From contig CAYQUS010000001.1 in assembly GCA_964421015.1 (NCBI GenBank), positions 364,726 to 428,725 of the forward strand: a DNA stretch of 64,000 bases, in the 5' to 3' direction. The DNA comes from an uncultured Planctomycetia bacterium (GTDB lineage Bacteria; Omnitrophota; Gorgyraeia; Tantalellales; Tantalellaceae). A program made the translations under genes and the position numbers. Below, one piece after another: positions 1 to 56,112 of this stretch (positions within the stretch are counted from its first letter, which is position 1; each line of letters begins with the position of its first letter). The notes beneath the pieces are model-generated. The model ran no database searches. It worked only from the letters and a program-made list of their open reading frames with translations, and was not told the origin of the DNA.

Positions 1-1569
1 CTTCCACTCCGGACCCAATTTCTTAACGAATATTTCCTTTTTAGGACTTGTGACCTGATTATTTACGGTTACATACTCTATCCCGGCAGCGTTCAGCTCA
101 TCAACTTCATATGGCATCGCCGGAAGAGTGCTGAGGAACTGCCCCTGACTGGAAGGATCTTCGTAGAGAAAGTAAAGCGGGTAACCCGTCTCGGCGGGAT
201 CTGAAACACTTATCATGAGTTCCAACTTGATATCCGAAACGCTGGAATTTTCTTTATACCCTCTTTTTTTCAGGCGTTTTTCCACAAGCTGAGAATAAGG
301 CTGGCTTAAGGCGGGCCTGAAACTGGTGCTGTCGCAGGCTATCCTTGAACCTTGCTTCACGTTATCTTTTATCCACTGCGCCGCTATTACGCGAGTATCC
401 AGAGAACTGAAAAGAATATCGGCCTTGACCGATTTAACTGTGGTAGGGACTAAAAACAAAAATGCCATCATGATCGCCGCTCTTCTGGCTTTCAGGCCGG
501 ATCCCAAAAACCCTAACCGGTCAAACAAAAGATATCCTGCCCCTATGGCCAGAAAAGGCACAAGAAAGATGACATATCTTGAAAAATGCTGGCTTTTAAA
601 GACAAGAACAGCGTATAACGCGACCGGGAATACCGCTACGATCTTGTGCCATCCGTCATTACTAAAAGCGAAAAAAAATATCCCAAGCCCGCCCATTAGA
701 GCTATAGGAACTGAGATGCCCTGAAAAAGAGAGTATGTCAAATGATGCGTCCAGCCAGTATAACAGAAGGCTCCGCTCTGGCTCAAAGATGACCTCATAA
801 AACCATCGAGATCAATTACGGCAAAAGGGTTTACCATAATAAATGCCGCGGCGATAAGGAGAAAACCCAACCACAATTTCGCTGAAAAGAATATTTCCCC
901 AAGGGACTTCCGTGACGACATAAAATGGGCCAGAAGATAAGGCGCCAGCATCACTACCCCGTTATATTTTACCCCTATGCAAAGACCGATGAAAATACCT
1001 GACAGGCAGTAATTTTTAAAATTCGGAGCCTTAAAAAGGAAAAACAACCTCTCGTAAGCAAGCAGTATAAGCGCCGTAAGAAGCATATCGGTGTATATGT
1101 AATGCGAATTGACGACGTTCAAGAAGCTGAACGACATTACGGCCGCGGCGAAAAGCGCGGCGTTTTTCGTCAGAGATCTTTCAGCTAACTTGTATGTAAG
1201 AAAAATGGACGCTGTTCCCGGGAGAACCCCTATGAAAAATCTTCCGACGAGGTAAAATATCGTGGGATCCCTGAAAAATGAAACAGCAAAATCCTGAGTC
1301 CCCTGCCAGGCGCCCATGACCTTTCCGACAAGGAACATGAGCCCGTATAGAGAGAAGAGAATATACGAAGTGAGCGGCGGGATAGCGAAGAACCCGGGGT
1401 TAAGATCCCCCGTACCGTAGGCAAGAGCATGGTTCACCACAATAGGCTCATCCTGATGGAATTGATAAGGAAGCCCGAAACTTATTCCCCACACGCGAAG
1501 TAAAAACCCGGCCAACAGGATACCTAAAAGCGTTAACCGCGTTTTTTCAGGCAAAACTACCCGTGACAT
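1..1569 (-). CDS. 5'-complete, 3'-truncated (runs off window) membrane glycosyltransferase, GT39/ArnT/PMT-like (GT-C fold)
   Basis: Not in the ORF track (no stop inside the window); translated manually. ATG at 1569 (rc) overlaps the upstream GT2 stop by 13 nt. Frame spot-checked at five places (1441-1569, 1141-1260, 721-780, 301-360, 1-60) with no stops. Hydrophobic multi-TM N-terminus with 'LPYQFHQDEPIVVNHA' in the first loop, typical of ArnT/PMT-type transferases. Confidence 0.55.
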   Translation of the reverse strand, partial: MSRVVLPEKTRLTLLGILLAGFLLRVWGISFGLPYQFHQDEPIVVNHALAYGTGDLNPGFFAIPPLTSYILFSLYGLMFLVGKVMGAWQGTQDFAVSFFRDPTIFYLVGRFFIGVLPGTASIFLTYKLAERSLTKNAALFAAAVMSFSFLNVVNSHYIYTDMLLTALILLAYERLFFLFKAPNFKNYCLSGIFIGLCIGVKYNGVVMLAPYLLAHFMSSRKSLGEIFFSAKLWLGFLLIAAAFIMVNPFAVIDLDGFMRSSLSQSGAFCYTGWTHHLTYSLFQGISVPIALMGGLGIFFFAFSNDGWHKIVAVFPVALYAVLVFKSQHFSRYVIFLVPFLAIGAGYLLFDRLGFLGSGLKARRAAIMMAFLFLVPTTVKSVKADILFSSLDTRVIAAQWIKDNVKQGSRIACDSTSFRPALSQPYSQLVEKRLKKRGYKENSSVSDIKLELMISVSDPAETGYPLYFLYEDPSSQGQFLSTLPAMPYEVDELNAAGIEYVTVNNQVTSPKKEIFVKKLGPEWK

Positions 1570-2273
1570 TTTTTTATCCTGAATAGGTCCATGAACATGT
1601 TAAGGGAACTGTTCAAAACCGTTACTTTACTTTCGGGAGAATTCTCCCACACGACCCCTGTTTCTTTTATCCTGTAACCCTTCTTTTGGGCCAGATATAC
1701 CATTTCCACATCAAAACAAAATCCGTCGATCTTCATCTCAAGAGCTATTTCTCTCGCCGCTTCTCCTTTTATAAGTTTGAACCCGCACTGCGTGTCGTTA
1801 TACTCACTGAAGAAAAGCGCTTTCACGAAAACATTGAAGATCCTTCCCATCGTCTGGCGATACCATGGCTGCGGCACCTTGAGCTTAGACCCTTTTACGC
1901 TTCGTGAAGCCATCACAAGATCGTACCCCTGTGCCATGACATCAAGTAGCGTATCGAATTCAGCAATTGGAGTGGAAAGATCTGCGTCCGAGAAAAGAAC
2001 ATATTCTCCCTTAGAGGCCAAAATGCCGGTTCTGACGGAAAACCCTTTACCTCTGTTCTTAGCGTTGGAGAGTATTCTGAGTTTTCCTTCGGCCTCGAGT
2101 AGGCTCTTCCTTGAAACTTTCACCGTCCCGTCAACACTTCCGTCATCAACCAGTATTACCTCATACTTAATGTTACGCCCCTCAAAATAGGCGTGTATTT
2201 TGTCAAGTGACGCGGCTATGCGTTTTTCCTCGTTATAGGCCGGGATAATTATTGAAAGATACATGTTATTCAT
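1557..2273 (-). CDS. GT2 polyprenyl-phosphate sugar synthase-like glycosyltransferase (DPM1/GtrB/ArnC-like)
   Basis: 'LSIIIPAYNEEKRI...VILVDDGSVDGT...FSDADLS': GT-A DXD and N-terminal motifs; 238 aa. Confidence 0.85.
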   Translation of the reverse strand: MNNMYLSIIIPAYNEEKRIAASLDKIHAYFEGRNIKYEVILVDDGSVDGTVKVSRKSLLEAEGKLRILSNAKNRGKGFSVRTGILASKGEYVLFSDADLSTPIAEFDTLLDVMAQGYDLVMASRSVKGSKLKVPQPWYRQTMGRIFNVFVKALFFSEYNDTQCGFKLIKGEAAREIALEMKIDGFCFDVEMVYLAQKKGYRIKETGVVWENSPESKVTVLNSSLNMFMDLFRIKKCHG

Positions 2274-2338
2274 TTTTTTTAGATCCTTCGGTCGGCCTTG
2301 CGGCCTCTCTCAGGATGACTGCTGCTGCTTTCTAGTTT

Positions 2339-2367
2339 GGTGACAGGCACCGGTGGTGCCTGTCACC
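2339..2367. repeat. REP-like palindrome GGTGACAGGCACC-ggt-GGTGCCTGTCACC
   Basis: Perfect 13-bp arms; lies between the two GT2 genes. Confidence 0.8.
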
Positions 2368-2371
2368 AATA

Positions 2372-3085
2372 TCAGTTGTATTTTCCAGCAAGGTCGTTCA
2401 CCCTTATTTTTGCAAGGCTCAAAAAACTTTTGATGCCGTCCCTTAAAGGTCTGACCTTTGACGTGTACTTATGTTTCCATTCCACGGGTATTTCTTTTAT
2501 CTTGTAGCCGTATTTTTTAGCTATAAAAAGATCTTCCGCGTCAAAGCTCCAATCGTTCATTATCTGTTTTCTGAAAACATCCCGGGAGGACTTTTTGTCG
2601 TATACCTTGAACCCACAGTTGATATCACTTACGCAAAGCCCCAAAAGCATCCTTGCGAAAAGTATGTACACAAGACCCAGTACGCGCCGTAATACCGGCA
2701 CCTTCACATCCGCGCCCGACATGCGCCTTGAAGCTATGTAAATAGAATTTTCGGAGCCGAATTCCGAATAAAACTTCTCAAGCTCTTTTATGGAAGTGGA
2801 ATTATCGGCGTCCATAAAAAGAACGTACTCTCCCCTTGCCTCAAGCATGGCCTTTTTAACAACGTAACCCTTTCCATGATTGGGTTTGCTTTCTATTATC
2901 CTGAAATTGACAATTCGCCCTTCAAATCCTCGGGCTTTGGTGACTGTCCGGTCTGTCGACCCATCATCGGCTAGTATTAGTTCTGAAAGAAAATCTTTTT
3001 TGGACAGATAGCTCTCTATCTCGGATAGAGTACCCTCTATATTCTTTTCTTCGTTGTAAGCAGGGATAATGACAGATAGATACAT
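2372..3085 (-). CDS. GT2 polyprenyl-phosphate sugar synthase-like glycosyltransferase (second paralogue)
   Basis: 'YLSVIIPAYNEEKNI...LILADDGSTDRT...FMDADNS'; 237 aa. Confidence 0.8.
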   Translation of the reverse strand: MYLSVIIPAYNEEKNIEGTLSEIESYLSKKDFLSELILADDGSTDRTVTKARGFEGRIVNFRIIESKPNHGKGYVVKKAMLEARGEYVLFMDADNSTSIKELEKFYSEFGSENSIYIASRRMSGADVKVPVLRRVLGLVYILFARMLLGLCVSDINCGFKVYDKKSSRDVFRKQIMNDWSFDAEDLFIAKKYGYKIKEIPVEWKHKYTSKVRPLRDGIKSFLSLAKIRVNDLAGKYN

Positions 3086-3165: not shown

Positions 3166-4293
3166 CTAGAACGCCAATACGGTATCTATCACGTACTGTA
3201 TCATTTCTTCCGTAAGTTCAGGATATACGGGCAGGGACAGAACGCTTTTCGCGGCCTTCTCGGAAACCGGGAAATCCCCTTCTTTGTGGCCAAGGTTCTT
3301 GTAACATGGCTGAAGATGCATCGGCACAGGATAGTACACCCTTGAGCCTATACCTTTTTCCTCGAGATACTTCAGCATGCCGTCCCTGTCGGGAACCGCT
3401 ATAGTATACTGGTGATAAGTGTGGACATTACCCTCCCCTGTTTTAGGAGCGATTATCTTACCCGAGTTCGAGAATGCCTTATTGTATTCCGCGGCTATCT
3501 TTCTGCGTTTTTCAAGCCAGGTATCAAGTTTTTTAAGCTTAACCCTGAGTATGGCGGCCTGCAGGCTGTCAAGACGGGAATTGTACCCTATAAGATCGTG
3601 AACATACTGTTTGCTGCTTCCATGAACCCTGAGCTTTTTGACAAGCGCGATAAATGCTTCGCTCGAAGAAAGGACCATTCCTCCGTCACCGAACCCGCCC
3701 AGATTCTTGCTGGGGAAAAAGCTAAATGCCCCGGCAAGTCCGAAACTCCCGGCTTTCTTACCCTTGTAGACCGCTCCCATAGCCTGGGCACAGTCCTCTA
3801 TTATCGTAAGCCCATATTTCTCAGCGATAGCCATGATAGGATCCATATCTGCGCACTGGCCATAAAGGTGGACTGGGATAATAGCTTTTATCGTTCTGAG
3901 TTCTGCGTTATTGCGTTTTTGCGTTTCGATTAAAAGTTCCTCGACTTTTCTGGGGTCGATGTTGTATGTGTCGGGATCGATATCGACAAATACCGGTACA
4001 GCGCCAAGAACGGATATTGACTCGGCTGTAGCGAAAAATGTGAAAGGTGTCGTTATTACCCTGTCACCCTCGCCTATACCGGCTGCTTTAAGAGCGAGAA
4101 TTATGGCGTCGGTACCAGAAGCTACACCGACACCGTGAGAAACGCCGGTGTACGCTGCTACTTCCTTTTCAAGAAACGAAACTTCGGGGGAAAGTATAAA
4201 ATGTTGATTTTCAAGGACACCGGCTATAGCCGCGTCTATTTCTTTTTTTATTCCCAGATACTGGCCTTTCAGATCCAAAAGCGATACTTTCAT
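3166..4293 (-). CDS. DegT/DnrJ/EryC1/StrS-family PLP-dependent sugar aminotransferase (Per- or ArnB-like)
   Basis: Family-typical N-terminus 'LLDLKGQY...ENQHFILSPEVSFLEKEVAAYTGVSHGVGVASGTDAI'. The ORF-track start (4317) includes the SD; the true start is ATG 4293 (MKVSLLDL) with AAGGAGAG 11 nt upstream. Confidence 0.85.
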   Translation of the reverse strand: MKVSLLDLKGQYLGIKKEIDAAIAGVLENQHFILSPEVSFLEKEVAAYTGVSHGVGVASGTDAIILALKAAGIGEGDRVITTPFTFFATAESISVLGAVPVFVDIDPDTYNIDPRKVEELLIETQKRNNAELRTIKAIIPVHLYGQCADMDPIMAIAEKYGLTIIEDCAQAMGAVYKGKKAGSFGLAGAFSFFPSKNLGGFGDGGMVLSSSEAFIALVKKLRVHGSSKQYVHDLIGYNSRLDSLQAAILRVKLKKLDTWLEKRRKIAAEYNKAFSNSGKIIAPKTGEGNVHTYHQYTIAVPDRDGMLKYLEEKGIGSRVYYPVPMHLQPCYKNLGHKEGDFPVSEKAAKSVLSLPVYPELTEEMIQYVIDTVLAF

Positions 4294-4352
4294 TATAATG
4301 CCTCTCCTTTTTTTCAACCTCTACCTTAACCTGTCCCTTCTTTTGACCCCTT

Positions 4353-4398
4353 AGTGACAGGCACTACAACTCGGAAAATACGATCTGTGCCAGTCACT
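4353..4398. repeat. REP-like imperfect palindrome AGTGACAGGCAC-N22-GTGCCAGTCACT
   Basis: 11 of 12 arm positions complementary; gmd-degT spacer. Confidence 0.6.
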
Positions 4399-4448
4399 TC
4401 GACCTTAACCTGAACCTCAACCTCTTTCTGCTTCCCCCTTCTTACTTC

Positions 4449-5429
4449 CTACCCCTTGGCTAAATACTCGTAATCCGACTTCACCATCTCGTTAACCAGA
4501 TCTTCGAACGAGAGCTTATATTCCCAGTCCAGTTCTTTTCTGGCTTTAGACGGATCCGCCACAAGAAGATCCACTTCCGCCGGACGGAAAAAATTCTTGT
4601 CTATTTCGACATATTTTTCGTAGTTGAGCCCGAGGTATTTAAAAGCGAGTTCGGCGAACTCCCTAACCGAGTGGGTTTCGCCCGTTCCTATGACATAATC
4701 CTCCGGTCTGTTCCTCTGGAGCATCGAATGCATCGCCTTAACATATTCCCCGGCGTGTCCCCAGTCCCTTTTCGCCTCCAGATTTCCAAGATACAGTTTC
4801 TTTTCTCTTCCAAGTTTTATCCTGGCCGCGGCGGAAGTGATCTTTCTTGTCACAAACTCGTATCCTCTTCTCGGGGACTCATGGTTAAAAAGTATCCCGC
4901 TCACCGCGAACATATCGTACGCCTCCCGGTAATTTCGCGTAAGGTCGAATCCTGCAACCTTGGATATGCCGTAGACGGACCGCGGGTGGAACCTGGTCTT
5001 CTCACTTTGCGGGACTTCCTCTACCCTGCCGAACATCTCGCTGGATGCGGCGAAATAGAACCTGCAATCCGGGACTACGCTCTGGAGAGCCGATAATATG
5101 TAATGCGTGCCGTTTATATTGGCGTTAAGCGTAGAGAACTCGTCTTCGAAAGAATACGTAACAAAACTTTGGGCGGCGAGATGATAACATTCGTCAGGCT
5201 TGATCCTCTGCACTATCTTAAATAAACTCGGATAACTTTCCAGTGACCCTGAATGAAAAACTATCCTGTCGGCTATGTGGTTTATCCTCCACATCCTGTG
5301 TTTCTGGTCCTCGAGAGCCACTCTCCGGACAACACCGTGAACCTCGTATCCCAGTCCCAAAAGATATTCGGCAAGATAACTCCCGTCCTGCCCCGTTATC
5401 CCAGTTATTAAAGCTTTCTTGGCCGGCAT
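4449..5429 (-). CDS. gmd: GDP-mannose 4,6-dehydratase
   Basis: 'KKALITGITGQDGSYLAEYLLGLGYEVHG...YHLAAQSFV' canonical Gmd. Confidence 0.9.
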   Translation of the reverse strand: MPAKKALITGITGQDGSYLAEYLLGLGYEVHGVVRRVALEDQKHRMWRINHIADRIVFHSGSLESYPSLFKIVQRIKPDECYHLAAQSFVTYSFEDEFSTLNANINGTHYILSALQSVVPDCRFYFAASSEMFGRVEEVPQSEKTRFHPRSVYGISKVAGFDLTRNYREAYDMFAVSGILFNHESPRRGYEFVTRKITSAAARIKLGREKKLYLGNLEAKRDWGHAGEYVKAMHSMLQRNRPEDYVIGTGETHSVREFAELAFKYLGLNYEKYVEIDKNFFRPAEVDLLVADPSKARKELDWEYKLSFEDLVNEMVKSDYEYLAKG

Positions 5430-5439
5430 AGTGCTCCTT

Positions 5440-6372
5440 TTATTTTAAAGATCCTTTAGCCCACTCGATAGTTTTGCTGATCCCTTCCTCCAGACTGACC
5501 CTGGGTTCCCAGCCAAGCTCTTTCCTGGCTTTTGTTATATCCGGACGCCTTACCTTGGGATCGTTGACCGGGAGCGGCTTAAAGATTATATCGCTTTTTG
5601 TTCCCGTAAGTCTTTTTATGATTTTGGCGAAATCAAGAACACTCAACTCTTCCGGGTTGCCGATATTCACAGGTTCATTTAGCTTTGAGTTCATAAGACG
5701 TATTATTCCCTCAACAAGATCGGAAACATAGCAGAAACTTCTGGTCTGGGATCCGTCGCCGTAGACTGTCAGCGGCTCTCCCTTAAGGGACTGATCTATA
5801 AAATTCGGCACCACTCTGCCGTCATTATGGCGCATTCTTTCCCCGTAGGTGTTGAATATCCGCACGATCTTAGTGTCAATACCATGGGTCCTGTGATAAG
5901 CCAGGGTTATAGCCTCGGCGAACCTTTTCGCTTCGTCATAACATCCCCTTGGGCCTATGGGATTCACATTTCCCCAGTATGTCTCCGGCTGTGGATTCAC
6001 AAGCGGGTCACCGTAAACCTCGGAAGTCGAGGCCAGGAGAAATTTAGCCTCGTGTTCTTTCGCTACCCCAAGAGCGTTATGTGTGCCGAGAGACCCCACC
6101 TTAAGCGTCTTTATCGGATGCTGCAGATAATCCTCAGGGCTGGCCGGAGAAGCGAAATGCAGCACATAATCTATCTTTTCGTCGAGTATTATGAACTTTG
6201 AGACATCATGCTTTATGAACTCGAAATTCTCATTGGACGCCAGGCGAGAAATATTATCCGTACTTCCGGTTATCAAATTGTCCATACAGACAACTTTGTG
6301 CCCGTCCTTGAGCAACCTCTCCGATAAATGTGATCCAAGAAACCCGGCGCCGCCTGTAAGTAATATCCGCAT
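5440..6372 (-). CDS. UDP-glucuronate decarboxylase family (UXS/ArnA C-domain-like SDR)
   Basis: '[16 protein letters not shown]...[10 protein letters not shown]...[17 protein letters not shown]' UXS hallmark motifs. Confidence 0.8.
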
Positions 6373-6463
6373 ATTAGTCCTTTTTTGTTCCTTTTGTTCT
6401 GTTAAATCAACCTCAACCTTAACCTGAAGCTCAATCTTAGCTCTTTACCCTAACTACTTTAAC

Positions 6464-6622
6464 TCAAAATAACGTGTATATGAACGGCGCCACGGCCGAT
6501 GATTCCGTAAAAAGGACCAGGAGCCCCAGAAGAATAAGAATAACAACTATCGGGAGAAGCCACCATTTTTTTCTTACCTTCATGAAATCCCAAAGCTCTC
6601 TAAAAAGCTCCATTTTTCCCAT
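6464..6622 (-). CDS. SxtK/DUF5989-like 52-aa membrane protein (not in ORF track, below 60 aa)
   Basis: Manual translation: MGKMELFRELWDFMKVRKKWWLLPIVVILILLGLLVLFTESSAVAPFIYTLF*. GAGGAG SD upstream. This family commonly sits next to carbamoyltransferase/SxtJ genes. Confidence 0.6.
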   Translation of the reverse strand: MGKMELFRELWDFMKVRKKWWLLPIVVILILLGLLVLFTESSAVAPFIYTLF

Positions 6623-6682
6623 TTTTTCTCCTCATGTTACTTCGAGTAAATCTTTCCTGTCTTGCAATGTCAAGCAGGCTCG

Positions 6683-7084
6683 TCAATACTGCTTCTCAAG
6701 ACTTTCTCTATCTGCCGATATAACCGCTCTTTTTCTCCAGTAAGTATCTGAGGGCCTGTTGAAATTTTTGTCTAGAATATCCTTGCCCAGAAACCTCATA
6801 ACAAGTCCGATAGGCGTGAGGATAAGGTAATAAACCGCTATAAGTATGACCCTCGTGTTAAACCACCCTATAGCGTGGGCCACCCTTAGAAATATCCTGA
6901 AAACAGGAGAAAGAAGGACCGGAAAGATAAGCGCCGATATAAGAGCCGCGCCTGAAAACCCGGCAAACCACATAAACAGGTTCTCATTGCCTTTTCTGAA
7001 ATGCAAAAAGGACAGTATGGCAAGAATAAGCGCCAAGACCGTTCCGAATTCCCTTAAATCTTTTTTTCCCCAATCGTTTTTCAT
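6683..7084 (-). CDS. SxtJ-like small membrane protein
   Basis: 133 aa with 2-3 TM segments, immediately downstream of the carbamoyltransferase, the usual SxtJ position. Confidence 0.55.
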   Translation of the reverse strand: MKNDWGKKDLREFGTVLALILAILSFLHFRKGNENLFMWFAGFSGAALISALIFPVLLSPVFRIFLRVAHAIGWFNTRVILIAVYYLILTPIGLVMRFLGKDILDKNFNRPSDTYWRKRAVISADRESLEKQY

Positions 7085-7096
7085 CTTTGTATGGCC

Positions 7097-8926
7097 TTAA
7101 TCAAGTTCAAATTCGAACACTTCCTCCAGCCTGAGCCTGGCAGGATCCTGCTGTTTTTTATCTATGACGAAACTACCCATTACCAGATAATCCATATTGG
7201 TTCTCATGAAACAACGGTAAGCGTCATCCGGAGTGCAAACAATAGGTTCACCCCTTACGTTAAATGACGTATTGATAACAAGCGGACATCCATGAAGCTC
7301 TGAAAATTTTTCGATAAGAGCGTAATAATCCGGATTATCTTCCCTTTTTACTGTCTGCACCCTGGCGGAATAGTCTACATGCGTTATGGCGGGAACTTCC
7401 GAGCGCTTTTCTTTAAGTTTTTCCATACCCCGCGATAAAGAGTCATTTTTCATCGGGACCCTCTTCTCTTCGGCAACGGGCGAGACGATCAGCATGTAAG
7501 GGCTTTCTGAATCAAGCCCGAAATATTCTTTGGCGTTCTCCGCGAGGATACTCGGAGCGAAGGGTCTGAAAGACTCCCTGAACTTTATTTTCCTGTTTAT
7601 TACAGACTGCATTTTTTCGGATCGGGGATCCCCAAGGATACTTCTTGAGCCGAGAGCCCTGGGACCGAATTCCATCCTTCCCTGAAACCACCCTATCACG
7701 TTTTCCGCCGCGATCAGGCTTGCCACCCGGGAATAAAGATCCTCTTTTCCCATACGCGTGTAAGGAATACCGTTCTCCTTAAGATATCTTTCCACTTCTT
7801 CATCCGAAAAATCAGGCCCCAGGAGACTCGCCTTTTGTGAATCGCGTGTTTTAGTGGCGTGCCGAACATTACCCAGGTATTCATGCCAGGCAACAAGAGC
7901 CGCGCCAAGAGCTCCGCCGGCATCCGAAGAAGCGGGTTGTATCCAGATCTTTTCAAAGGGACCTTCTCTTAAGACCTTTCCGTTAGACACACAGTTAAGA
8001 GCTACCCCTCCGGCCATGCAAAGATTTCTACAGGATGTCGTATCGTAAAGGTGACGCGCCATCTTCATTACCACGGATTCCGTTACGACCTGCACGGATC
8101 TGGCAAGGTCCATATGTCTCTGTTCGACTTCAGCCTCTTTTTTTCGCGGCGGACCGCCGAAAAGCTTATGAAACTTTCGGTTTGTCATGGTAAGTCCGGC
8201 GCAGTAGTTAAAATACTTCATATTGAGCTTAAAAGAACCGTCCGGTTTGAGATCGATGAGCTCATCAAGAATGATCTGAGCGTATACAGGTTCACCGTAA
8301 GGCGCCAGGCCCATAAGCTTGTATTCTCCGGAATTAACCTTAAAACCGCAATAGTAAGTAAAAGCCGAGTATAAAAGCCCCAGAGAATGAGGGAACCTTA
8401 TCTCCTCAAAAAGTTCTATTCTGTTTCCCCTGCCCTTCCCGAGGGTTACCGTAGCCCATTCTCCCACGCCATCCACCGTAAGAATCGCCGCCTCTTCGAA
8501 TGGAGAGGGGTAAAAAGCGCTGGCCGCGTGAGAATGATGGTGTTCCGGAAAAATGATCCTCCCCTGGTACCCAAGCTCCGACTTTATGTGTTCTTTCATG
8601 AAAAGTTTCTTTTTTATCCAGGGCGGCATAGCTTGAATAAAAGACCGTATTCCGGAAGGGGCATAAGCAAGATAGGTCTCAAGAAGACGTTCGAATTTAA
8701 CAAACGGCTTATCATAAAAGGCCACTACATCCAGATCTCCCGGCTCTACTCCCGCCTCTTTAAGACAGTATTCCACAGCCTTTGACGGAAAAGAAGGATC
8801 ATGTTTCTTCCTCGTGAACCTTTCCTCCTGAGCAGCGGCGATAATATTACCGTTCTCCAAAAGCGCGGCGGCGGAATCGTGATAATAAGCGGAAATTCCA
8901 AGTATGTATGTTTTGTTATTTTTCAT
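7097..8926 (-). CDS. Carbamoyltransferase, NodU/CmcH/SxtI family
   Basis: 'YILGISAYYHDSAAALLENGNIIAAAQEERFTRKKHD' N-terminal ASKHA-like domain plus a C-terminal carbamoyltransferase domain; 609 aa. Confidence 0.9.
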   Translation of the reverse strand: MKNNKTYILGISAYYHDSAAALLENGNIIAAAQEERFTRKKHDPSFPSKAVEYCLKEAGVEPGDLDVVAFYDKPFVKFERLLETYLAYAPSGIRSFIQAMPPWIKKKLFMKEHIKSELGYQGRIIFPEHHHSHAASAFYPSPFEEAAILTVDGVGEWATVTLGKGRGNRIELFEEIRFPHSLGLLYSAFTYYCGFKVNSGEYKLMGLAPYGEPVYAQIILDELIDLKPDGSFKLNMKYFNYCAGLTMTNRKFHKLFGGPPRKKEAEVEQRHMDLARSVQVVTESVVMKMARHLYDTTSCRNLCMAGGVALNCVSNGKVLREGPFEKIWIQPASSDAGGALGAALVAWHEYLGNVRHATKTRDSQKASLLGPDFSDEEVERYLKENGIPYTRMGKEDLYSRVASLIAAENVIGWFQGRMEFGPRALGSRSILGDPRSEKMQSVINRKIKFRESFRPFAPSILAENAKEYFGLDSESPYMLIVSPVAEEKRVPMKNDSLSRGMEKLKEKRSEVPAITHVDYSARVQTVKREDNPDYYALIEKFSELHGCPLVINTSFNVRGEPIVCTPDDAYRCFMRTNMDYLVMGSFVIDKKQQDPARLRLEEVFEFELD

Positions 8927-9050
8927 TCTTTAAGCCGCATTCGTGCCAGTCACTTAAACTAAACCTTGACCTCAACCTTAGCCTGTCTCCAGACACTTAC
9001 ACTCAACCTTAACCTTGCCCCTTTACTTCCCTCTTACTCCTTACATCTTG

Positions 9051-9986
9051 CTACTTGCTCTTAACAAACCACTTAACAGTTCTCTCTAACCCTTCGTGAA
9101 AACCCACTGACGGAGTAACCCCCAGCTTTTCCTTAAGCGCCGTTATATCAGCGTATGTTTTAAGAACATCTCCCCTTCTTTTCTCACCATATACGGGTGG
9201 AATATTTTTCCCCATTATCTTAGCTATCGTTTTGGCTGTTTCGTTCACCGAATAACTTTCCCCGCAGGCCACATTAAAGACCATGCCCGCTACACCCTTT
9301 GCGTGACAAGAAGCTATGTTAGCGTCCACAACGTTCTTTACATAAGTAAAATCCCGAGACTGTTCGCCTGTTCCGTCTATTATACACGGCTGGTCTTTCA
9401 TAAGCCTGTCAATAAAAGCCGGGATAACCGCCGAATACTTTGACTCGGGATTCTGTCTGGGGCCGAAAACGTTGAAATATCTTAGACTTACGGTCTCAAG
9501 GCCCATTGTGTAAGTAAACATCCTGGCATAAAGCTCTCCCGCCAGTTTACTGACGGCATAAGGCGAAATGGGATTGGGGCAAAGACCCTCATGTTCCGGG
9601 AAAACCTCACAGTCGCCGTACGCTGAACTGCTCGAAGCATAAACAAATCTTTTTACTTTGTGTTCGGCCGATATAAGCAGCATATTAAGAGTGCCCCAAA
9701 CGTTGACGTCGTTCGTGGGTACGGGCGCTTCAACGCTTTTAGCTACACTTCTTAAGGCCGCCTGGTGTATAACGTAATCCATTCCGGACACGGCCTTTTT
9801 TACGTCTTCTTCCTTACGAACATCCCCCTTAAGAAATTCTATCTTATCCATAAAGGGCTTTAAATGAGCTTCGAACCCGGTAGAGAGGTTGTCCAGTACG
9901 CGGACGGTCTCGCCTTTAGAAACAAGTTCCTCTACAATGTTGGAGCCTATGAAACCGGCTCCGCCTGTTACCAGGTATTTAGACAT
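9051..9986 (-). CDS. UDP-sugar 4-epimerase, WbpP/TviC-like SDR
   Basis: 'KYLVTGGAGFIGSN...YASSSSAYG...SPYAVSK(YxxxK)...LRYFNVFGPRQ'. Start trimmed to ATG 9986 (MSKYL), which has an AGGAG SD 7 nt upstream. Confidence 0.8.
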   Translation of the reverse strand: MSKYLVTGGAGFIGSNIVEELVSKGETVRVLDNLSTGFEAHLKPFMDKIEFLKGDVRKEEDVKKAVSGMDYVIHQAALRSVAKSVEAPVPTNDVNVWGTLNMLLISAEHKVKRFVYASSSSAYGDCEVFPEHEGLCPNPISPYAVSKLAGELYARMFTYTMGLETVSLRYFNVFGPRQNPESKYSAVIPAFIDRLMKDQPCIIDGTGEQSRDFTYVKNVVDANIASCHAKGVAGMVFNVACGESYSVNETAKTIAKIMGKNIPPVYGEKRRGDVLKTYADITALKEKLGVTPSVGFHEGLERTVKWFVKSK

Positions 9987-10292
9987 GTTTTTACTCCTTG
10001 TAGACACGTTAGTGCCAGGCACCATTACAAACACACGTTGGTTCCCCCTCGCTACAGTTCAGCTATGCAGTTTCAGTTTTCTCTGCTCATAAAACTGCAG
10101 CTTCACTGGCTCGGGACAGTTCGACCAGGCACCGTCTCGTTATTGCGTTTTTGCGTTACGCGTTATTGCGTCATAACCTTAACTTGACTATAGATTCTTC
10201 GCTTCGCTCATAATGACGTCTCTCAGCCTGGACCTTAACCTAAACCTCAGCCTTAACCTACCCGTTTCCCCTTTCTACTTTCTACTTTCTAC

Positions 10293-11606
10293 TTACAACT
10301 TAACTATATTCTCTCCCTTTATCCCCAGTTTCCCGGTAATATTACGGGTATCGAATATTTTTTTAGCGTTCCTCGCCACCAGTTTGTAATCCACATCGGA
10401 ATGGTCGGTAAGGACAATTACGAGGTCCTGTTCCTTGATGAGTTCCGGCAGGATCTTCACGCTCCTGGACTTAAGACCGTGTATGTCAAGGTACGGTATA
10501 TAGCTGTCGTTATATATCCAGGCGGATTTCTTTTTATCCAGGATCTTTATAACGTCCAGAGCCGGTGACTCGCGAAGATCGTTTATGTCCTTTTTGTACG
10601 CCACACCCAGAACAAGTATTTTGGCGCCCTTAAGTTTTTTGCCGGCCGCCTTGAGGAGTTCCTCCACCCTGTCTGCCACGTGCCTGGGGGCGTTGATATT
10701 GACCCTGGCGGCAAGATCTATCATCTTTGTCTCAAACCCTACTTTACGGGCTTTCCAGGAAAGATACATCGGATCCGCCGGTATGCAGTGTCCTCCAACT
10801 CCCGGACCGGGATAGAAAGGCATGAAACCGAAAGGTTTAGTTTTAGCCGCCTCAACGACCTCCCACACGTCTATACCAAGCTTATGACAGAGATGGGCAA
10901 ACTCGTTTATAAGGCCGATATTGACTATCCGGAAAGAGTTTTCCAGAAGTTTCGTGACCTCGGCGGTCTCAGGAGATGTCAGCCCTATGACCTTAGCTGT
11001 AACCTGCTCATAAAGCAGCTTAGCCAGTTCCGTGCACCTGTCTGTTATCCCGCCGACCAGTTTGGGTATGTTTGAAAAGTCGTATTTGGGGTTTCCCGGA
11101 TCTATCCTTTCCGGGGAGAACGCGAGAAAGAAATCCTCTCCCGCCAGGAAAGTCTTTCCGGAAATCGTGGGAAGAAGAATGTCCCTCGTAGTTCCCGGGT
11201 AGGTTGTGCTTTCAAGTACCACAAGCTGGCCTTTTCTGAAATTCTCTTTTACCGTTTTAGCCGCTGAAAGTATATATGAGATATCCGGTTTAAGGGCCTT
11301 GTTTATCGGTGTGGGCACGCAAATTATAATGACGTCACATTTGGAAAGAGCTTTATTGTTGGCCGTAACAGAGAACTTACCGGTTGAAGAGGCTTCGGCT
11401 ATATCCTCGTCTTTCATGTCTCCTATGTAGGATTCCCCTTTCTTAAGGCGGGCTATCCTTTTCTTGCTGGAGTCAAGCCCGATGACATTAAAACCTTTCC
11501 GTGAAAATTGTATGGCCATCGGAAGCCCGACATAACCGAGACCTATAACCCCGACAACGGCTGTTTTGTCTAGAATTTTCTTTTCAAGATTTGTGTATGT
11601 ATTCAT
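10293..11606 (-). CDS. UDP-N-acetyl-D-hexosamine / UDP-glucose 6-dehydrogenase family (WbpO/TviB-like)
   Basis: 'VGVIGLGYVGLPMA' Rossmann fold and 'GGHCIPADP' catalytic Cys motif; 437 aa. It pairs with the adjacent WbpP-like epimerase. Confidence 0.85.
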   Translation of the reverse strand: MNTYTNLEKKILDKTAVVGVIGLGYVGLPMAIQFSRKGFNVIGLDSSKKRIARLKKGESYIGDMKDEDIAEASSTGKFSVTANNKALSKCDVIIICVPTPINKALKPDISYILSAAKTVKENFRKGQLVVLESTTYPGTTRDILLPTISGKTFLAGEDFFLAFSPERIDPGNPKYDFSNIPKLVGGITDRCTELAKLLYEQVTAKVIGLTSPETAEVTKLLENSFRIVNIGLINEFAHLCHKLGIDVWEVVEAAKTKPFGFMPFYPGPGVGGHCIPADPMYLSWKARKVGFETKMIDLAARVNINAPRHVADRVEELLKAAGKKLKGAKILVLGVAYKKDINDLRESPALDVIKILDKKKSAWIYNDSYIPYLDIHGLKSRSVKILPELIKEQDLVIVLTDHSDVDYKLVARNAKKIFDTRNITGKLGIKGENIVKL

Positions 11607-11636: not shown

Positions 11637-11678
11637 GGTGACAGGCGCTCTGAAAAAGTAATGAGTGCGCCGGTCACC
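11637..11678. repeat. REP-like palindrome GGTGACAGGCGC-N18-GCGCCGGTCACC
   Basis: 11 of 12 complementary; between the rmlD start and the wbpO-like stop. Confidence 0.6.
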
Positions 11679-12561
11679 TTGATATATATTCCCGAAGAGC
11701 CTCTTCCCATTTTCTAAGTTCCATTCCGGTATACGCCGTGAACTTACCGGTATCCATAACCGAAAAAGCGGGCCTCGCGGCCGGCCTTCCCAGACTGTCC
11801 GAAGAAACCGGGACTATCGACGTATCAGACATTTGGGGAACAAAACTTTTTATCTTCACCGCGAATTCATACCAGGAACACTGTCCGGAGTTACACACGT
11901 GATATATCTCACGCCCGTTTACGCCTTTCGCGATAAGCTCCTTCAAAGCCAGCGCAAGATCCTTTGTATATGTCGGAGAGCCCACCTGATCGTTAACCAC
12001 CTTTAGACTCTTTTCCGCGGATGATTTTGATATTATCGTATCGACAAAATTTTTCCCGCCAGGCCCGAAAAGCCAGCTTGTACGCACTATGGCAAAATCT
12101 CCGGCCTGTTTTTTGACGGTTTCTTCCCCCAGGACCTTGGTCCTGGCGTACTCTCCTAAAGGTCCGAGCTCATCGGTTTCTTTGTAAGGAAAGTTCTTCC
12201 TGCCGTCAAAAACAAAATCCGTGCTGATAAAGACCAGTTTGGTCCCGATCGCCCCCGAAACCGATGCCACGTTGATCGTGCCTTCAATGTTTATCCTGCG
12301 GGCCCTGTCCTTGTCCAGTTCGCACCCGTCCACGTCTGTCCATGCCGCCGCATGGATGACAACATCGGGCCTTTCTGTTTCTAAAGCCTTCCTGACCCGG
12401 CCGGCGTCCGATATATCGGCTTCGTAAAATTTATCCAAAGATGGATACCTCGTACCGGGCTCTCTTATGTCCATTCCGGACAACTCTGCCCCGCTCTTTG
12501 AAAGAACACCGCAAAGTTCCTGCCCGAGCATGCCGCTTGAGCCAGTTATCAATATTTTCAT
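11674..12561 (-). CDS. rmlD: dTDP-4-dehydrorhamnose reductase
   Basis: 'MKILITGSSGMLGQEL...VIHAAAWTDVD' RmlD family. Confidence 0.85.
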   Translation of the reverse strand: MKILITGSSGMLGQELCGVLSKSGAELSGMDIREPGTRYPSLDKFYEADISDAGRVRKALETERPDVVIHAAAWTDVDGCELDKDRARRINIEGTINVASVSGAIGTKLVFISTDFVFDGRKNFPYKETDELGPLGEYARTKVLGEETVKKQAGDFAIVRTSWLFGPGGKNFVDTIISKSSAEKSLKVVNDQVGSPTYTKDLALALKELIAKGVNGREIYHVCNSGQCSWYEFAVKIKSFVPQMSDTSIVPVSSDSLGRPAARPAFSVMDTGKFTAYTGMELRKWEEALREYISR

Positions 12562-12591
12562 AGACCCGCTATCCCGGGAAACGCGAGATCC

Positions 12592-13569
12592 TCACCACTT
12601 TATGATCTCGGCTTTTTCCCTGAGTTTTCTCCACCAAAGTTCATTACCCTTGTACCAGCGCACCGTCTTGTCTATATCTCCCGAAAAATCCGAAGAGGGT
12701 TTCCACCCCAAATCTTTCATTTTAGAAGAATCAAGAGCGTACCTTCTGTCATGCCCCGGCCTGTCCTTCACATACTCGATAAGATCTTTTCCCTTCCCCA
12801 TCGAGGATAGTATGGCGTTTGTAAGGTCAAGGTTGGAGACGTGGTTGCCGCCGCCTATATTGTATATTTCTCCGCTCTTTCCTTTACGCATTACTATATC
12901 CAGGCCTCTGCAGTTGTCCTCCACAAAAATCCAGTCCCTTACGTTACCGCCGTCCCCGTAAAGCGGGACTTTTTTACCATCGATAAGGTTGGTTATAAAA
13001 AGAGGTATTACCTTCTCGGGGAACTGATACGGTCCGAAATTGTTAGAACTCCTCGTGACTATTACAGGCAGACCGTATGTGGTGAAATACGAAAGGGCCA
13101 GAAGGTCGGCCGCGGCCTTGGTGGCCGAGTAGGGACTATTAGGCTTAAGGGGATCTTCTTCCGATGAAAGCCCCTTGGCCACGCTGCCGTAAACCTCATC
13201 CGTACCTATCTGTATGAATCTGGACACCCCTTTTTTTCGGGCCGCTTCGAGAAGCGTCTTTGTGCCGTAGACATTAGTTACGATAAAGTCGTCGGGGTAT
13301 TTTATAGACCTGTCCACATGGGTTTCCGCCGCGAAATTCACCACAACGTCAGACGCCCCCACGAGAGACTCCACAAGTTCCTTGTCGCATATATCACCTT
13401 TAACGAAAGAATAACGGGCGTCAGACGATATATCGTCGAGACTCTCCGGGTTACCGCAATACGTGAGCTTGTCGAGGTTAGTTATCCTTATATCCTTGTA
13501 CTCCCGGAGCAAAAGCCTTATAAAATTCGACCCTATAAAGCCGCACCCTCCCGTCACCAGAAGCCTCAT
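12592..13569 (-). CDS. rmlB: dTDP-glucose 4,6-dehydratase
   Basis: 'MRLLVTGGCGFIGSNFIRLLL...NFAAETHVDRSI'. Start trimmed to 13569; its ATGA overlaps the rmlA stop. Confidence 0.9.
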   Translation of the reverse strand: MRLLVTGGCGFIGSNFIRLLLREYKDIRITNLDKLTYCGNPESLDDISSDARYSFVKGDICDKELVESLVGASDVVVNFAAETHVDRSIKYPDDFIVTNVYGTKTLLEAARKKGVSRFIQIGTDEVYGSVAKGLSSEEDPLKPNSPYSATKAAADLLALSYFTTYGLPVIVTRSSNNFGPYQFPEKVIPLFITNLIDGKKVPLYGDGGNVRDWIFVEDNCRGLDIVMRKGKSGEIYNIGGGNHVSNLDLTNAILSSMGKGKDLIEYVKDRPGHDRRYALDSSKMKDLGWKPSSDFSGDIDKTVRWYKGNELWWRKLREKAEIIKW

Positions 13570-14312
13570 TCGGCGCCCTCCCCTGAAAACTTTTTCTCTT
13601 CTTTTTCGGCCACCAGATTGGTAGCTCTCCGAAGCGACCTGAAAGTTCCGGCATCGGTCCACCAGCCGTCAAGCATGGAGTATTCCAGCTGGCCTTTTTT
13701 GATATACATATTGTTAACGTCGGTGATCTCAAGCTCTCCCCTGTCAGAGGGATCAAGTCCCTTTATAAAATCAAAAACCTGCGGATCGTACATATACACG
13801 CCGGTAACTATGTAATTCGTAGGCGGATTTTTGGGCTTTTCTATTATCCTTTTTATCTTCTTGCCGTCAAATTCCACGACGCCGAACCTTTCGGGGTTGG
13901 AGGACTCCTTTATCATTATACGAGCGCCTTTTTTCTGCGCGGCGAACTTCTCGACTTCGCTTTTTATGCTTTTTTCAATTATGTTGTCTCCAAGAATAAC
14001 GACACATTTGTCGTTATCGGCAAAGTATTCGGCAAGGCCCAGGGCCTCGGCTATGCCACCCTCTTTTTCCTGATAGGCGTAATTTATCCCTTTGAGGCCG
14101 AATTCCGTTCCGTTACCGAGAAGCCGGAGAAAACTTCCAGCGTGGCTGCCGCCCGTAACTACCATTATCTCGGTTATTCCGGCGTCCACAAGGGTCTGTA
14201 TGGGATAATAGATCATGGGTTTATCGTAAACAGGAAGAAGATGCTTGTTGGTTATCTTTGTCAGGGGGAAAAGCCTGCTGCCAAGACCGCCCGCTAGTAC
14301 TATACCTTTCAT
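13566..14312 (-). CDS. rmlA: Glucose-1-phosphate thymidylyltransferase (short form)
   Basis: 'MKGIVLAGGLGSRLFPLTKITNKHLLPVYDKPMIYYPI'. Confidence 0.9.
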   Translation of the reverse strand: MKGIVLAGGLGSRLFPLTKITNKHLLPVYDKPMIYYPIQTLVDAGITEIMVVTGGSHAGSFLRLLGNGTEFGLKGINYAYQEKEGGIAEALGLAEYFADNDKCVVILGDNIIEKSIKSEVEKFAAQKKGARIMIKESSNPERFGVVEFDGKKIKRIIEKPKNPPTNYIVTGVYMYDPQVFDFIKGLDPSDRGELEITDVNNMYIKKGQLEYSMLDGWWTDAGTFRSLRRATNLVAEKEEKKFSGEGAE

Positions 14313-14374
14313 GAATCCACCTTTTTATTTAGATCCTTCGGTCGCTTCGCTTCCTCAGGATGACGTTCGCCTCG

Positions 14375-14821
14375 TTATTTCTTCCAGTCAAACGGTATAT
14401 CGTTGTCAAAAGCATCTACACGGTACTCGTCAGGATCGTTCTTATCGTAGGGCCGGGTTACCGTATTTATGACCACAGCCTCCTCATCGCTCACACACTT
14501 GAACCCGTGGTACACTTCGGCCGGGATCTGTACGAGAAGAGGGTTCTCGAGGCTGATAGTGTACTCTTCCGTTTTACCGTAAGTCGGGGAAGTTTTCCGG
14601 GCGTCATAAAGACCCAGTCGCATCTTCCCTCTTATGCATGTAAAGTTATCAGTCTGCTTTTTATGATAATGCCATGCTTTCACCACTCCGGGAAAAGCCG
14701 TTGTCATGTAAACCTGCCCGAAAACCTGGAAAATATCATCGTCGTTCCGTAATATTTCCATCAAACGTCCGCGGTCATCCGGTATGAGCCTTAGTTTTTT
14801 CACTTTGACGCCCTCTATCAT
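14375..14821 (-). CDS. rmlC: dTDP-4-dehydrorhamnose 3,5-epimerase-like cupin
   Basis: 148-aa cupin with 'RGLHYH'-type motif (here 'KAWHYHKKQTD'); it lies in an rmlC-A-B-D gene order. Confidence 0.8.
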   Translation of the reverse strand: MIEGVKVKKLRLIPDDRGRLMEILRNDDDIFQVFGQVYMTTAFPGVVKAWHYHKKQTDNFTCIRGKMRLGLYDARKTSPTYGKTEEYTISLENPLLVQIPAEVYHGFKCVSDEEAVVINTVTRPYDKNDPDEYRVDAFDNDIPFDWKK

Positions 14822-16183: not shown

Positions 16184-16400
16184 AATACGCCTTTCTCCTG
16201 TTAAGGGAGAAGAAAACACATATTCACAGGAGCTTAAAAAATGAATATTCCCTTATAATAATAAAGGTCACATCCCTGTTTAACAAATACTGTAAAACAT
16301 CAAAAAACAGCGCCCCAAAAAGCGAAAAACTAAGTTGAAATTATAGCATACCCCTATAAAGGCCGCAATAAAATATGGGTTAGAAGTTGTAGGGGGAAAC

Positions 16401-41524: not shown

Positions 41525-41531
41525 AATACCC

Positions 41532-42122: not shown

Positions 42123-42123
42123 A

Positions 42124-43149: not shown

Positions 43150-43151
43150 GC

Positions 43152-55079: not shown

Positions 55080-55100
55080 AATGCCCTGTATTTGCGAGTC

Positions 55101-56105: not shown

Positions 56106-56112
56106 ACGTCTC

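Follow-up and report, generated by a model that had tools for sequence, protein, structure and literature searches.

A 64,000-nucleotide stretch of genome from an uncultured bacterium of the Omnitrophota (contig CAYQUS010000001.1; hereafter the window) carries three genes encoding a carbamoyltransferase (CT), a small membrane protein of the SxtJ family and a membrane protein of the family DUF5989. The trio is a real and already catalogued module. Its three families are curated in Pfam, the NCBI names the two small products "SxtJ family membrane protein" and "DUF5989 family protein", and SxtI, SxtJ and SxtK of the cyanobacterial saxitoxin cluster belong to the same three Pfam families. Taken alone, the window is one more example of a catalogued gene neighbourhood, and its value comes from comparison. 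Seen across genomes, the module is no peculiarity of saxitoxin biosynthesis; it is a widespread, tight cassette with a CT clade of its own, often accompanied by a gene for a GDSL/SGNH protein and often found in envelope-glycan loci. We propose, giving the proposal about an even chance, that the CT is active, is held at the inner membrane by the SxtJ and DUF5989 proteins, and carbamoylates a lipid-linked sugar or an intermediate of lipopolysaccharide (LPS) or another glycan supplied by the surrounding gene cluster.

The carbamoyltransferase and its two small partners

The three open reading frames (ORFs) follow one another in the same orientation on the minus strand, at the positions that a preliminary description of this DNA had given. 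That description had recognised a CT followed by a 133-aa membrane protein and a 52-aa ORF, and all three are present with scores above their Pfam cut-offs:

7097-8926, minus strand: carbamoyltransferase, 609 aa, a class III (NodU/CmcH/TobZ-type) O-carbamoyltransferase of the trio-type (SxtI-like) clade
6683-7084, minus strand: SxtJ-family small membrane protein, 133 aa, PF19588
6464-6622, minus strand: DUF5989 (SxtK-like) single-pass membrane protein, 52 aa, PF19451

The spacers measure 12 nt between CT and SxtJ, 60 nt between SxtJ and DUF5989, and 91 nt between DUF5989 and the next gene, which is UXS-like. The CT and SxtJ ORFs share one reading frame, with a TAA and four codons between them (window 7085-7099), and a Shine-Dalgarno sequence, GAGGAG, lies upstream of the DUF5989 gene. 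The same arrangement is found in two independent read-set assemblies, and the nearest named homologues belong to metagenome-assembled genomes (MAGs) of Candidatus Omnitrophota. The 52-aa ORF had been called unannotated, which turned out to be wrong: an identical protein (P0121) is recorded in NCBI, JGI, ENA and Logan. Sigma-70 promoter-like sites occurred at the level of shuffled sequence (17 found, 18.8 expected) and terminator-like sites were commoner than in shuffles (33 found, 18.9 ± 4.8 expected). No predicted site of either kind fell in any spacer within or flanking the trio, and the scan thus leaves the operon limits undefined.

The CT aligns with Carbam_trans_N (PF02543; 352.8 bits, cut-off 24) through residues 8-344, corresponding to profile positions 2-346 of 346, and with Carbam_trans_C (PF16861; 253.9 bits, cut-off 27) over profile positions 1-170 of 170. 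Its motifs GPRALGSRSI, FRPFAP, THVDYSARVQ and NTSFN align with those of NovN and GdmN, and the closest solved structures are NovN (E=1.7e-101), an unnamed CTase (7xb6), GdmN and TobZ. In GdmN, a YrdC-like domain forms carbamoyl-AMP and a Kae1-like domain performs the carbamoyl transfer; the iron site consists of H133, H137, D156 and D333, and H27 is the general base (PMC9633730). All five residues are conserved in the window CT, in which H16, H129, H133, D152 and D335 correspond to GdmN H27, H133, H137, D156 and D333 in the HMMER alignment. With its catalytic residues intact, the protein is predicted to be an active class III O-carbamoyltransferase. The NodU equivalog NF041651 gave a partial match (residues 279-563) of 144.6 bits, far from its cut-off of 1000, and the CT is therefore not a NodU orthologue. 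An identity as TsaD or HypF was ruled out, the matches being 14.6-17.3 bits and far under the cut-offs.

The 52-aa ORF had been assigned to DUF5989/SxtK from the look of its sequence, and the profile search bears this out (PF19451; 90.7 bits, cut-off 27, E=6.1e-26). An alignment of 31 sequences gave the consensus ELWDFLKxRKKWWLxPI...LLLG...SAVAPFIYTLF with R17, L22, P24, P46, F47 and Y49 invariant, and every one of these is present in the window protein. Relatives amount to 4,441 clusters at 90% identity, or 3,870 representatives at 50%. The protein has a single hydrophobic span with KVRKKWW ahead of it, and by the positive-inside rule these charges suggest an N-in, C-out topology.

The SxtJ-family protein matches PF19588 with 49.5 bits (E=7.5e-13, cut-off 24.4), residues 8-104 covering profile positions 1-98 of 99. 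Its conserved core reads GWFNTRVIL...TPIG...GKD...YW...EKQF, with the most conserved part being AHAIGWFNTRVIL..VYY.ILTPIGL.MR.FGKD...YW...EKQF. An AlphaFold model (mean pLDDT 81, above 90 for residues 10-100) predicts helices at residues 7-31, 34-53 and 55-98, the last of 44 residues, followed by a disordered basic C-terminal tail; this three-helix prediction agrees with the earlier description of the ORF as a membrane protein. A Foldseek search of the PDB with the model returned no meaningful relative, the best hits (ESCRT-III, PspA and ferritin helices) having E values of about 1.

A natural in-frame fusion of CT and SxtJ (P0085, 743 aa) is found on a single public contig. Together with the reading frame shared by CT and SxtJ in the window, it would place the N-terminus of SxtJ in the cytoplasm beside the C-terminus of the CT, and both are weakly suggestive of SxtJ docking there. 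P0085 is the sole CT-SxtJ fusion left after removal of artefacts. The long apparent fusions P0326 and P0294 were read as out-of-frame read-through in high-GC genomes, and these two, like P0323 and P0388, contain no SxtJ domain. In the apparent fusion at locus L064, seemingly from a long-read MAG, the CT is already frameshifted.

The module across bacterial phyla

One genome per GTDB species was scanned with a pattern derived from the DUF5989 alignment, which gave at least 577 confirmed places, and 80 loci were annotated by iterative hidden Markov model searches. They represent more than 15 phyla, among them Acidobacteriota, Planctomycetota, Nitrospirota, Gemmatimonadota, Omnitrophota, KSB1 and Actinomycetota, and include Peribacteria of the candidate phyla radiation (CPR), SAR11, cyanobacteria and Alpha-, Gamma- and Deltaproteobacteria. 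CT, SxtJ and DUF5989 occur together in 64 of the 80 loci, with gaps mostly between -13 and about +150 nt. Five gene orders were seen: CT-SxtJ-DUF5989 (37 loci), SxtJ-DUF5989-CT (16), DUF5989-SxtJ-CT (5), SxtJ-CT-DUF5989 (4) and CT-DUF5989-SxtJ (1); in one further locus SxtJ and CT lie on the strand opposite DUF5989. The co-occurrence of the trio, which the preliminary description had put forward for analysis, is thus tight, and its survival through rearrangement argues for functional coupling. Another 12 loci contain DUF5989 only; six of these lie at contig ends and six are genuine (L013, L016, L036, L061, L067, L080). The lone DUF5989 gene of L036 (8736-10896, an Omnitrophota MAG) has neither CT nor SxtJ nearby and sits, as judged by eye, with genes for an O-antigen-ligase-like membrane protein and a family 2 glycosyltransferase (GT2) in a heptosyltransferase-type cluster.

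Trio loci of other phyla have CTs that share 52-66% identity with the window CT (median 59.8%, 61 loci), the exception being L034, which lacks SxtJ and whose CT is 38% identical. Plasmid-borne CTs form two groups, one with 56-63% identity to the window CT (planctomycete, Sinorhizobium/Ensifer, Ralstonia and Paraburkholderia) and one with 30-41% (NolO/NodU-type, Streptomyces, Burkholderia glumae, Bacillus and archaeal). These two identity groups place the window CT in a distinct, highly conserved trio-type (SxtI-like) clade. The CT, which had been expected to group with glycan-modifying enzymes, stands apart from the antibiotic-type enzymes and TsaD, and equally from the glycan-modifying NodU/NolO.

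The trio had also been described as known from nodulation-factor loci, and this was not borne out at the two nod-cluster CTs that were examined, in R. phaseoli (near nolE, nodD1 and nodI) and S. fredii (nodABCIJ-CT-noeI). No SxtJ, DUF5989 or SGNH gene was found within 7 kb of either. These CTs are 37-40% identical to that of the window and reach 410-480 bits with a trio-CT profile, compared with more than 800 for trio-type CTs. Rhizobia do carry the module elsewhere. All 40 of 40 plasmid matches to DUF5989 are records of Sinorhizobium, Ensifer, Rhizobium or Rhodobacteraceae, and the plasmids examined (S. meliloti pSymB and pNGR234b of NGR234) are large, chromid-type polysaccharide megaplasmids and not nod plasmids. 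On pSymB the order is SGNH / SxtJ-like - DUF5989 - CT (L083/L084; CP073680.1 483075-487277), about 8 kb from a polysaccharide operon. As S. meliloti is genetically tractable, this copy makes the function of the module testable without cyanobacterial or Omnitrophota genetics.

The record of S. meliloti 1021 lists no annotation for the DUF5989 gene. By gene order, with the neighbours matched via PMC6180224, the pSymB CT is probably SM_b20472, which a Tn-seq study names "arcB2, ornithine carbamoyltransferase" and counts among the genes essential for symbiosis (PMC7268258); that name is probably a misnaming.

The surroundings of the trio often include genes of glycan metabolism. At least one glycan-type gene lies within 10 kb in 42 of 62 trio loci, at least two in 27 and at least three in 17, counts that stand without a random-locus baseline. 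In L093 the trio sits inside a Wzx/Wzy locus, with Wzx and Wzy_C, and in Aquisphaera, where RefSeq annotates the same SxtJ/DUF5989 pair, it adjoins an exosortase exopolysaccharide locus. In L090 and on the contig of the P0085 fusion the module lies among unrelated genes.

Of the genes directly beside the trio, the commonest encodes a GDSL/SGNH protein. A profile broad enough to take in divergent members located an SGNH-like gene no more than 400 nt away in 24 of 62 loci. Of the 50 loci with full flanks, 23 have one at a distance of up to 1.5 kb, and over all 62 the number is 24-33 depending on the distance allowed. Among 29 such partners, 21 match Lipase_GDSL_2 and 7 match ALGX, and the serine of the GDS motif is invariant. 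Nearly all have a basic stretch followed by an N-terminal hydrophobic anchor, and attachment to the membrane with the catalytic domain on the non-cytoplasmic side is probable. Furthermore, in three of the genuine DUF5989-only loci an SGNH gene lies about 180 nt from DUF5989, and trio-type CTs of Ralstonia, Paraburkholderia and Azospirillum that lack DUF5989 still have an SGNH neighbour. The loci concerned are:

L016 3392-4645, L067 8688-10156 and L080 8497-10147: SGNH and DUF5989 genes without CT or SxtJ
L011, L025, L041, L042, L047, L062, L075, L088, L090 and L093: further loci with SGNH as a frequent fourth gene

No SGNH gene was detected anywhere in the 64-kb window at either E<=1 or E<=1e-6. 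In its Omnitrophota relatives at 76-77% CT identity, the place of the 91-nt spacer is taken by a divergent SGNH-like gene, and the relative with 72% CT identity (L092) and Aquisphaera lack the gene, like the window. Acyltransferases of the MBOAT or AT3 type are absent from the window cluster, and neither type ranks in the top 25 families, by number of matches, among the 119 genes that directly border related trio loci.

Where DUF5989 is missing, other small genes may follow the CT. In Ralstonia (L085 8860-9066) it is a 68-aa minimal SxtJ made up of the last helix and the basic tail, and in Azospirillum (L096 7829-8185) and Paraburkholderia (L095, about 7967-8116) small soluble proteins follow. 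The ends of the latter two, YNYTFF and FVYAMY, resemble the DUF5989 C-terminus FIYTLF, a likeness that may be due to chance.

The sugar cluster and the rest of the window

The preliminary description placed the trio within a cluster of nucleotide-sugar and LPS-type genes. This is what we see, and the placement is retained in Omnitrophota relatives. The cluster comprises:

16577-19318, minus strand: LptD-like outer-membrane LPS transport protein (PF04453, PF03968), the cluster boundary
14876-16219, minus strand: UDP-glucose 6-dehydrogenase, ugd, the first gene after LptD (three UDPG_MGDP_dh domains)
11674-14821, minus strand: rmlD, rmlB, rmlA and an rmlC-like gene, a dTDP-rhamnose-type pathway (Pfam/NCBIfam matches)
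10293-11606, minus strand: nucleotide-sugar dehydrogenase, WecC/TviB/WbpO-like (N-terminal, central and C-terminal UDPG_MGDP_dh domains)
9051-10034, minus strand: epimerase of the short-chain dehydrogenase/reductase (SDR) type, TviC/WbpP-like, the upstream neighbour of the trio (Pfam Epimerase, 199.7 bits)
5440-6372, minus strand: SDR decarboxylase/dehydratase, similar to UXS and the C-terminal part of ArnA, the downstream neighbour of the trio (GDP_Man_Dehyd 190 bits, Epimerase 178 bits)
4449-5429, minus strand: GDP-mannose 4,6-dehydratase, GMD (Pfam 400.8 bits; gmd equivalog 399.4, cut-off 415)
3166-4317, minus strand: DegT-family sugar aminotransferase (PF01041, 406 bits)
1557-3085, minus strand: two short GT2 glycosyltransferases (238 and 237 aa), polyprenyl-phosphate sugar synthase-like (Glycos_transf_2, 91 bits each)
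1-1560, minus strand: partial GT-C glycosyltransferase of the PMT_2/ArnT type (520-codon open frame; PMT_2 48.2 bits, cut-off 26.1)

From LptD to the start of the window every gene points in the same direction, and since the GT-C frame runs off the window start, the glycan cluster extends beyond it. As read from these families, the cluster would join nucleotide-sugar supply to a lipid-carrier route ending in a periplasmic GT-C.

The assignments differ in depth. The ugd product matches TuaD (589 bits) and, over the cut-off, the NDP-sugDHase subfamily (487 bits), as does the second dehydrogenase (430 bits). RmlB exceeds the cut-off of the dTDP-glucose 4,6-dehydratase equivalog (459 bits), and RmlD (RmlD_sub_bind, 303.5 bits) and RmlA (NTP_transferase, 210 bits) were assigned by Pfam domain alone. 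The RmlC-like protein matches dTDP_sugar_isom with 65 bits and the rmlC equivalog with 46 bits, under its cut-off of 156. For the upstream epimerase the top NCBIfam match was TviC (260 bits, cut-off 760), and for the downstream SDR the specific matches were again sub-threshold (UDP-xylose synthase 102 bits, ArnA 100 bits). The best specific matches of the DegT protein (PseC, LegC and ArnB) are all under their cut-offs, as are the top NCBIfam matches of the GT2 pair (PgfS, ArnC, AglJ, dolichyl-P hexose transferase and PpgS). Of the neighbours named in the preliminary description, gmd, rml and ugd were thus broadly right, and UXS, WbpP and WbpO stand at the level of the family, their specific matches being under the equivalog cut-offs.

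The same synteny is found in three other Omnitrophota contigs, with CT identities of 77%, 76% and 72%, and the LptD-like boundary keeps its position in the relatives L088, L091 and L092. This conservation supports a functional tie between the trio and the cluster in the lineage. Among the window genes scanned to about 27 kb there is no Wzx/Wzy, Wzm/Wzt or O-antigen ligase; the ABC ATPase found there is MalK-like.

A low-GC block at 41-57 kb was considered as a source of glycan export or assembly genes and ruled out, as it is a defence island (41144-56724, minus strand, GC 0.36-0.43). It encodes a type I restriction-modification system with HsdR, HsdS and two HsdM paralogues, together with RadC, RhuM, a DUF6088/AbiEi-like gene, a 744-aa Avs2-like protein (75.6 bits) and a radical-SAM protein with weak similarity to pVip (37 bits). 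Four small proteins of the island have no PADLOC match, and one of them (41532-42122) has no Pfam match either.

Two further features of the sugar cluster were noted. The 148-aa RmlC-like cupin (14375-14821, minus strand) also matches Pfam Polysacc_synt_C with 56.5 bits, a double match that recurs in its orthologue on a related Omnitrophota contig (L088 4632-5093). The spacers of the cluster share an element of about 60-80 nt, read on the coding strand, with runs of the hexamer RAGGTT: AAGTA..AAGGGG..AGGTTGAGGTTCAGGTTAAGGT..CTGG.ACAG. It lies at 4316-4424, 6409-6426, 8962-9016 and 10237-10254 on the minus strand, and also at 12823, 26070 and 49013. The pattern has 13 matches with 1.14 expected, and four of the spacers align with each other. 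An Rfam screen of window positions 1-20 kb for RNAs in these repeat-bearing spacers gave no match.

Proposed function and relation to known systems

In the reaction that we propose, the YrdC-like domain of the CT would make carbamoyl-AMP from carbamoyl phosphate and ATP, and the Kae1-like iron domain would pass the carbamoyl group to a hydroxyl of the acceptor. The CT would be co-transcribed, and probably translationally coupled, with SxtJ and DUF5989, whose three helices and one helix would together form its dedicated membrane partner. This partner would tether the soluble enzyme to the cytoplasmic face of the inner membrane, where the acceptor would itself be membrane-bound. The likeliest acceptor here is a polyprenyl-phosphate-linked sugar or a lipid-linked LPS/glycan intermediate, which the nucleotide-sugar enzymes, the DegT protein and the two polyprenyl-phosphate-type GT2s may make and the ArnT-like GT-C may deliver in the periplasm. 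What has been observed is the family to which the enzyme belongs, its intact set of catalytic residues, that the partners are membrane proteins, and that the trio is linked and keeps its synteny in the lineage; from this we infer the formation of a complex, its topology, the acceptor and a carbamoylated surface glycan. Should an envelope glycan prove to be the acceptor, modification of surfaces by O-carbamoylation would be much commoner than is now recognised.

Several observations weigh against this proposal. Phyla whose envelopes differ greatly (Actinomycetota, CPR Peribacteria, SAR11 and cyanobacteria) have CTs of unusually high conservation, which a common acceptor would fit better than lineage-specific glycans. 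No recognisable glycan gene lies within 10 kb in 20 of 62 trio loci, and the density of glycan genes is flat with distance from the trio (17.5% to 15%, again without a random-locus baseline), a profile that neither proves nor disproves enrichment. In Ralstonia, Paraburkholderia and Azospirillum, DUF5989 has been lost beside a trio-type CT and SxtJ has been lost or minimised, and the partners are thus not strictly required. The model of the P0085 fusion, built on a shallow alignment, has a mean pLDDT of 62.8, falling below 50 in the YrdC-like domain, and no interface is visible in it. SxtI, the sole trio member with a proposed substrate, has been proposed to carbamoylate a soluble saxitoxin precursor, an alkaloid. 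NolO/NodU-type glycan carbamoyltransferases do without the small partners at the two nod loci. The closest precedent for the predicted glycan carbamoylation is WapO (PA5005), a putative 7-O-carbamoyltransferase of the Pseudomonas LPS core heptose, encoded in an LPS biosynthesis cluster and assigned to a carbamoyl group known from that core (PMC8005017). The gene table of that paper gives it a glycosyltransferase and a kinase as neighbours and lists no small membrane partners.

In a rival explanation the acceptor would be soluble, for instance a nucleotide sugar or a small metabolite that many phyla share, with SxtJ and DUF5989 as accessories in stability, regulation or export of the product. 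The position in a sugar cluster would then reflect supply of a nucleotide-sugar substrate or the history of the lineage. The proposed role of SxtI fits this explanation, as do the solved class III CTases, which are soluble and have soluble metabolite substrates, the conservation of the CT across phyla, the loci without nearby glycan genes and the modules among unrelated genes in L090 and on the P0085 contig. However, a purely cytosolic reaction would hardly account for the persistent linkage to two integral membrane proteins in five gene orders, the synteny with an LPS-type cluster is kept down to 72% CT identity, and glycan genes are enriched at many loci; we consider a soluble acceptor rather unlikely. 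That the small ORFs are chance frames or mis-annotations and the CT the sole real gene could be entertained from their shortness (133 and 52 aa) and from a first call made by eye. Their Pfam E-values, the thousands of homologues with invariant residues, the synteny with CT kept in more than 15 phyla and the annotation of the pair by RefSeq in Aquisphaera rule this out for practical purposes.

The frequent SGNH partner suggests another speculation, in which the cytoplasmic CT would serve to activate the carbamoyl group, the membrane part would consist of SxtJ and DUF5989, and a periplasm-facing SGNH protein would install or edit the group on an exported glycan; the window would then be a reduced version that has lost its SGNH component. 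This relay is consistent with the proximity of SGNH genes to the trio, their Lipase_GDSL_2 or ALGX domains and N-terminal anchors, their presence beside DUF5989 in three loci without CT and SxtJ and beside trio-type CTs without DUF5989, and the divergent SGNH-like gene directly after DUF5989 in close Omnitrophota relatives. The saxitoxin cluster offers a parallel, since its gene table lists sxtL, a GDSL lipase, after sxtIJK (PMC2679770), and a GDSL/SGNH gene is found in about 40-46% of the related loci. But the window and several other loci, among them L092 and Aquisphaera, lack the gene, and SxtJ and DUF5989 together give only about four helices and have no invariant His, Ser or Cys to act as the nucleophile does in MBOAT and AT3 proteins. 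It is equally possible that the SGNH protein acts as a decarbamoylase, the role proposed for SxtL, or is an esterase unrelated to the module. Carbamates are usually inhibitors of serine hydrolases and seldom their substrates, and we know of no system that carries carbamoyl groups across a membrane; both points count against the relay, which we regard as improbable.

In its widest form the same speculation would make CT, SxtJ, DUF5989 and the anchored SGNH protein an unrecognised, phylum-spanning system of trans-envelope carbamoylation, present in at least 577 species genomes including those of SAR11, CPR Peribacteria, cyanobacteria and rhizobia. In it, docking of the CT would fall to SxtJ and that of the SGNH protein to DUF5989, and the carbamoyl group would be installed or edited outside the membrane, on an envelope glycan or lipid that is conserved. 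Such a system would be the carbamoyl counterpart of the AlgIJFX, PatAB and OatA relays, with saxitoxin sxtIJKL as a recruited copy. We hold this, too, to be a long shot.

A literature search for DUF5989 returned no papers that mention it. The breadth of the module, the separate CT clade, the SGNH partner, the DUF5989-SGNH pairs without CT and the pSymB copy appear to be unreported in the accessible literature; these are comparative observations, and none is unique to the window.

Among characterised enzymes, TobZ, GdmN and NovN share with the window CT the Kae1-like and YrdC-like domains, the iron site and the general-base histidine (E 1e-81 to 1e-101). They are soluble and act on secondary metabolites. 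GdmN and NovN have 682-687 aa, compared with 609 in the window CT, which lacks the additional C-terminal dimerisation domain of GdmN (D574-L674; PMC9633730). NodU and NolO have the same two-domain class III architecture and act on an oligosaccharide.

The likeness to the O-acetylation relays AlgI/J/F/X, PatA/PatB and OatA/OafA is one of functional analogy only. A cytoplasmic donor, one or more membrane components, an anchored periplasmic SGNH/AlgX-like protein and a location in glycan loci would be the common elements. Those relays use acetyl-CoA and an MBOAT or AT3 protein, whereas the window would use carbamoyl-AMP chemistry and has neither MBOAT/AT3 nor SGNH. No homology of SxtJ or DUF5989 to proteins of these relays was detected. 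In gene context only, the window resembles the Arn (L-Ara4N) pathway, with ugd, the UXS/ArnA-C-like SDR, DegT, ArnC-like GT2s, an ArnT-like GT-C and LptD adjacent. The specific Arn equivalog models are all far under their cut-offs, neither a formyltransferase nor a deformylase nor an ArnE/F homologue turned up, and the presence of GMD and the rml genes suggests different sugars.

The closest likeness is to saxitoxin biosynthesis, and the link drawn in the preliminary description to sxtI, sxtJ and sxtK holds in the literature. The functions of SxtJ and SxtK have been described as unknown since at least 2009, and in 2025-26 the two were still "hypothesised to work in conjunction" with SxtI; publications from 2009 onwards assume joint action of the three without experiment. 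The saxitoxin gene table also includes, among others, the amidinotransferase sxtG, the oxygenases sxtH/T, sxtU and sxtN (PMC2679770). No other sxt-type gene is present among the 20 flanking window genes scanned, which are all sugar, LPS, GGDEF or housekeeping genes. The saxitoxin set is cyanobacterial and has sxtL, whereas the window organism belongs to the Omnitrophota and has no sxtL-like gene. The usual CT-SxtJ-DUF5989 order is that in which the table gives sxtI, sxtJ and sxtK, and sxtJ and sxtK measure 405 and 165 bp, compared with 402 and 159 bp in the window (PMC2679770).

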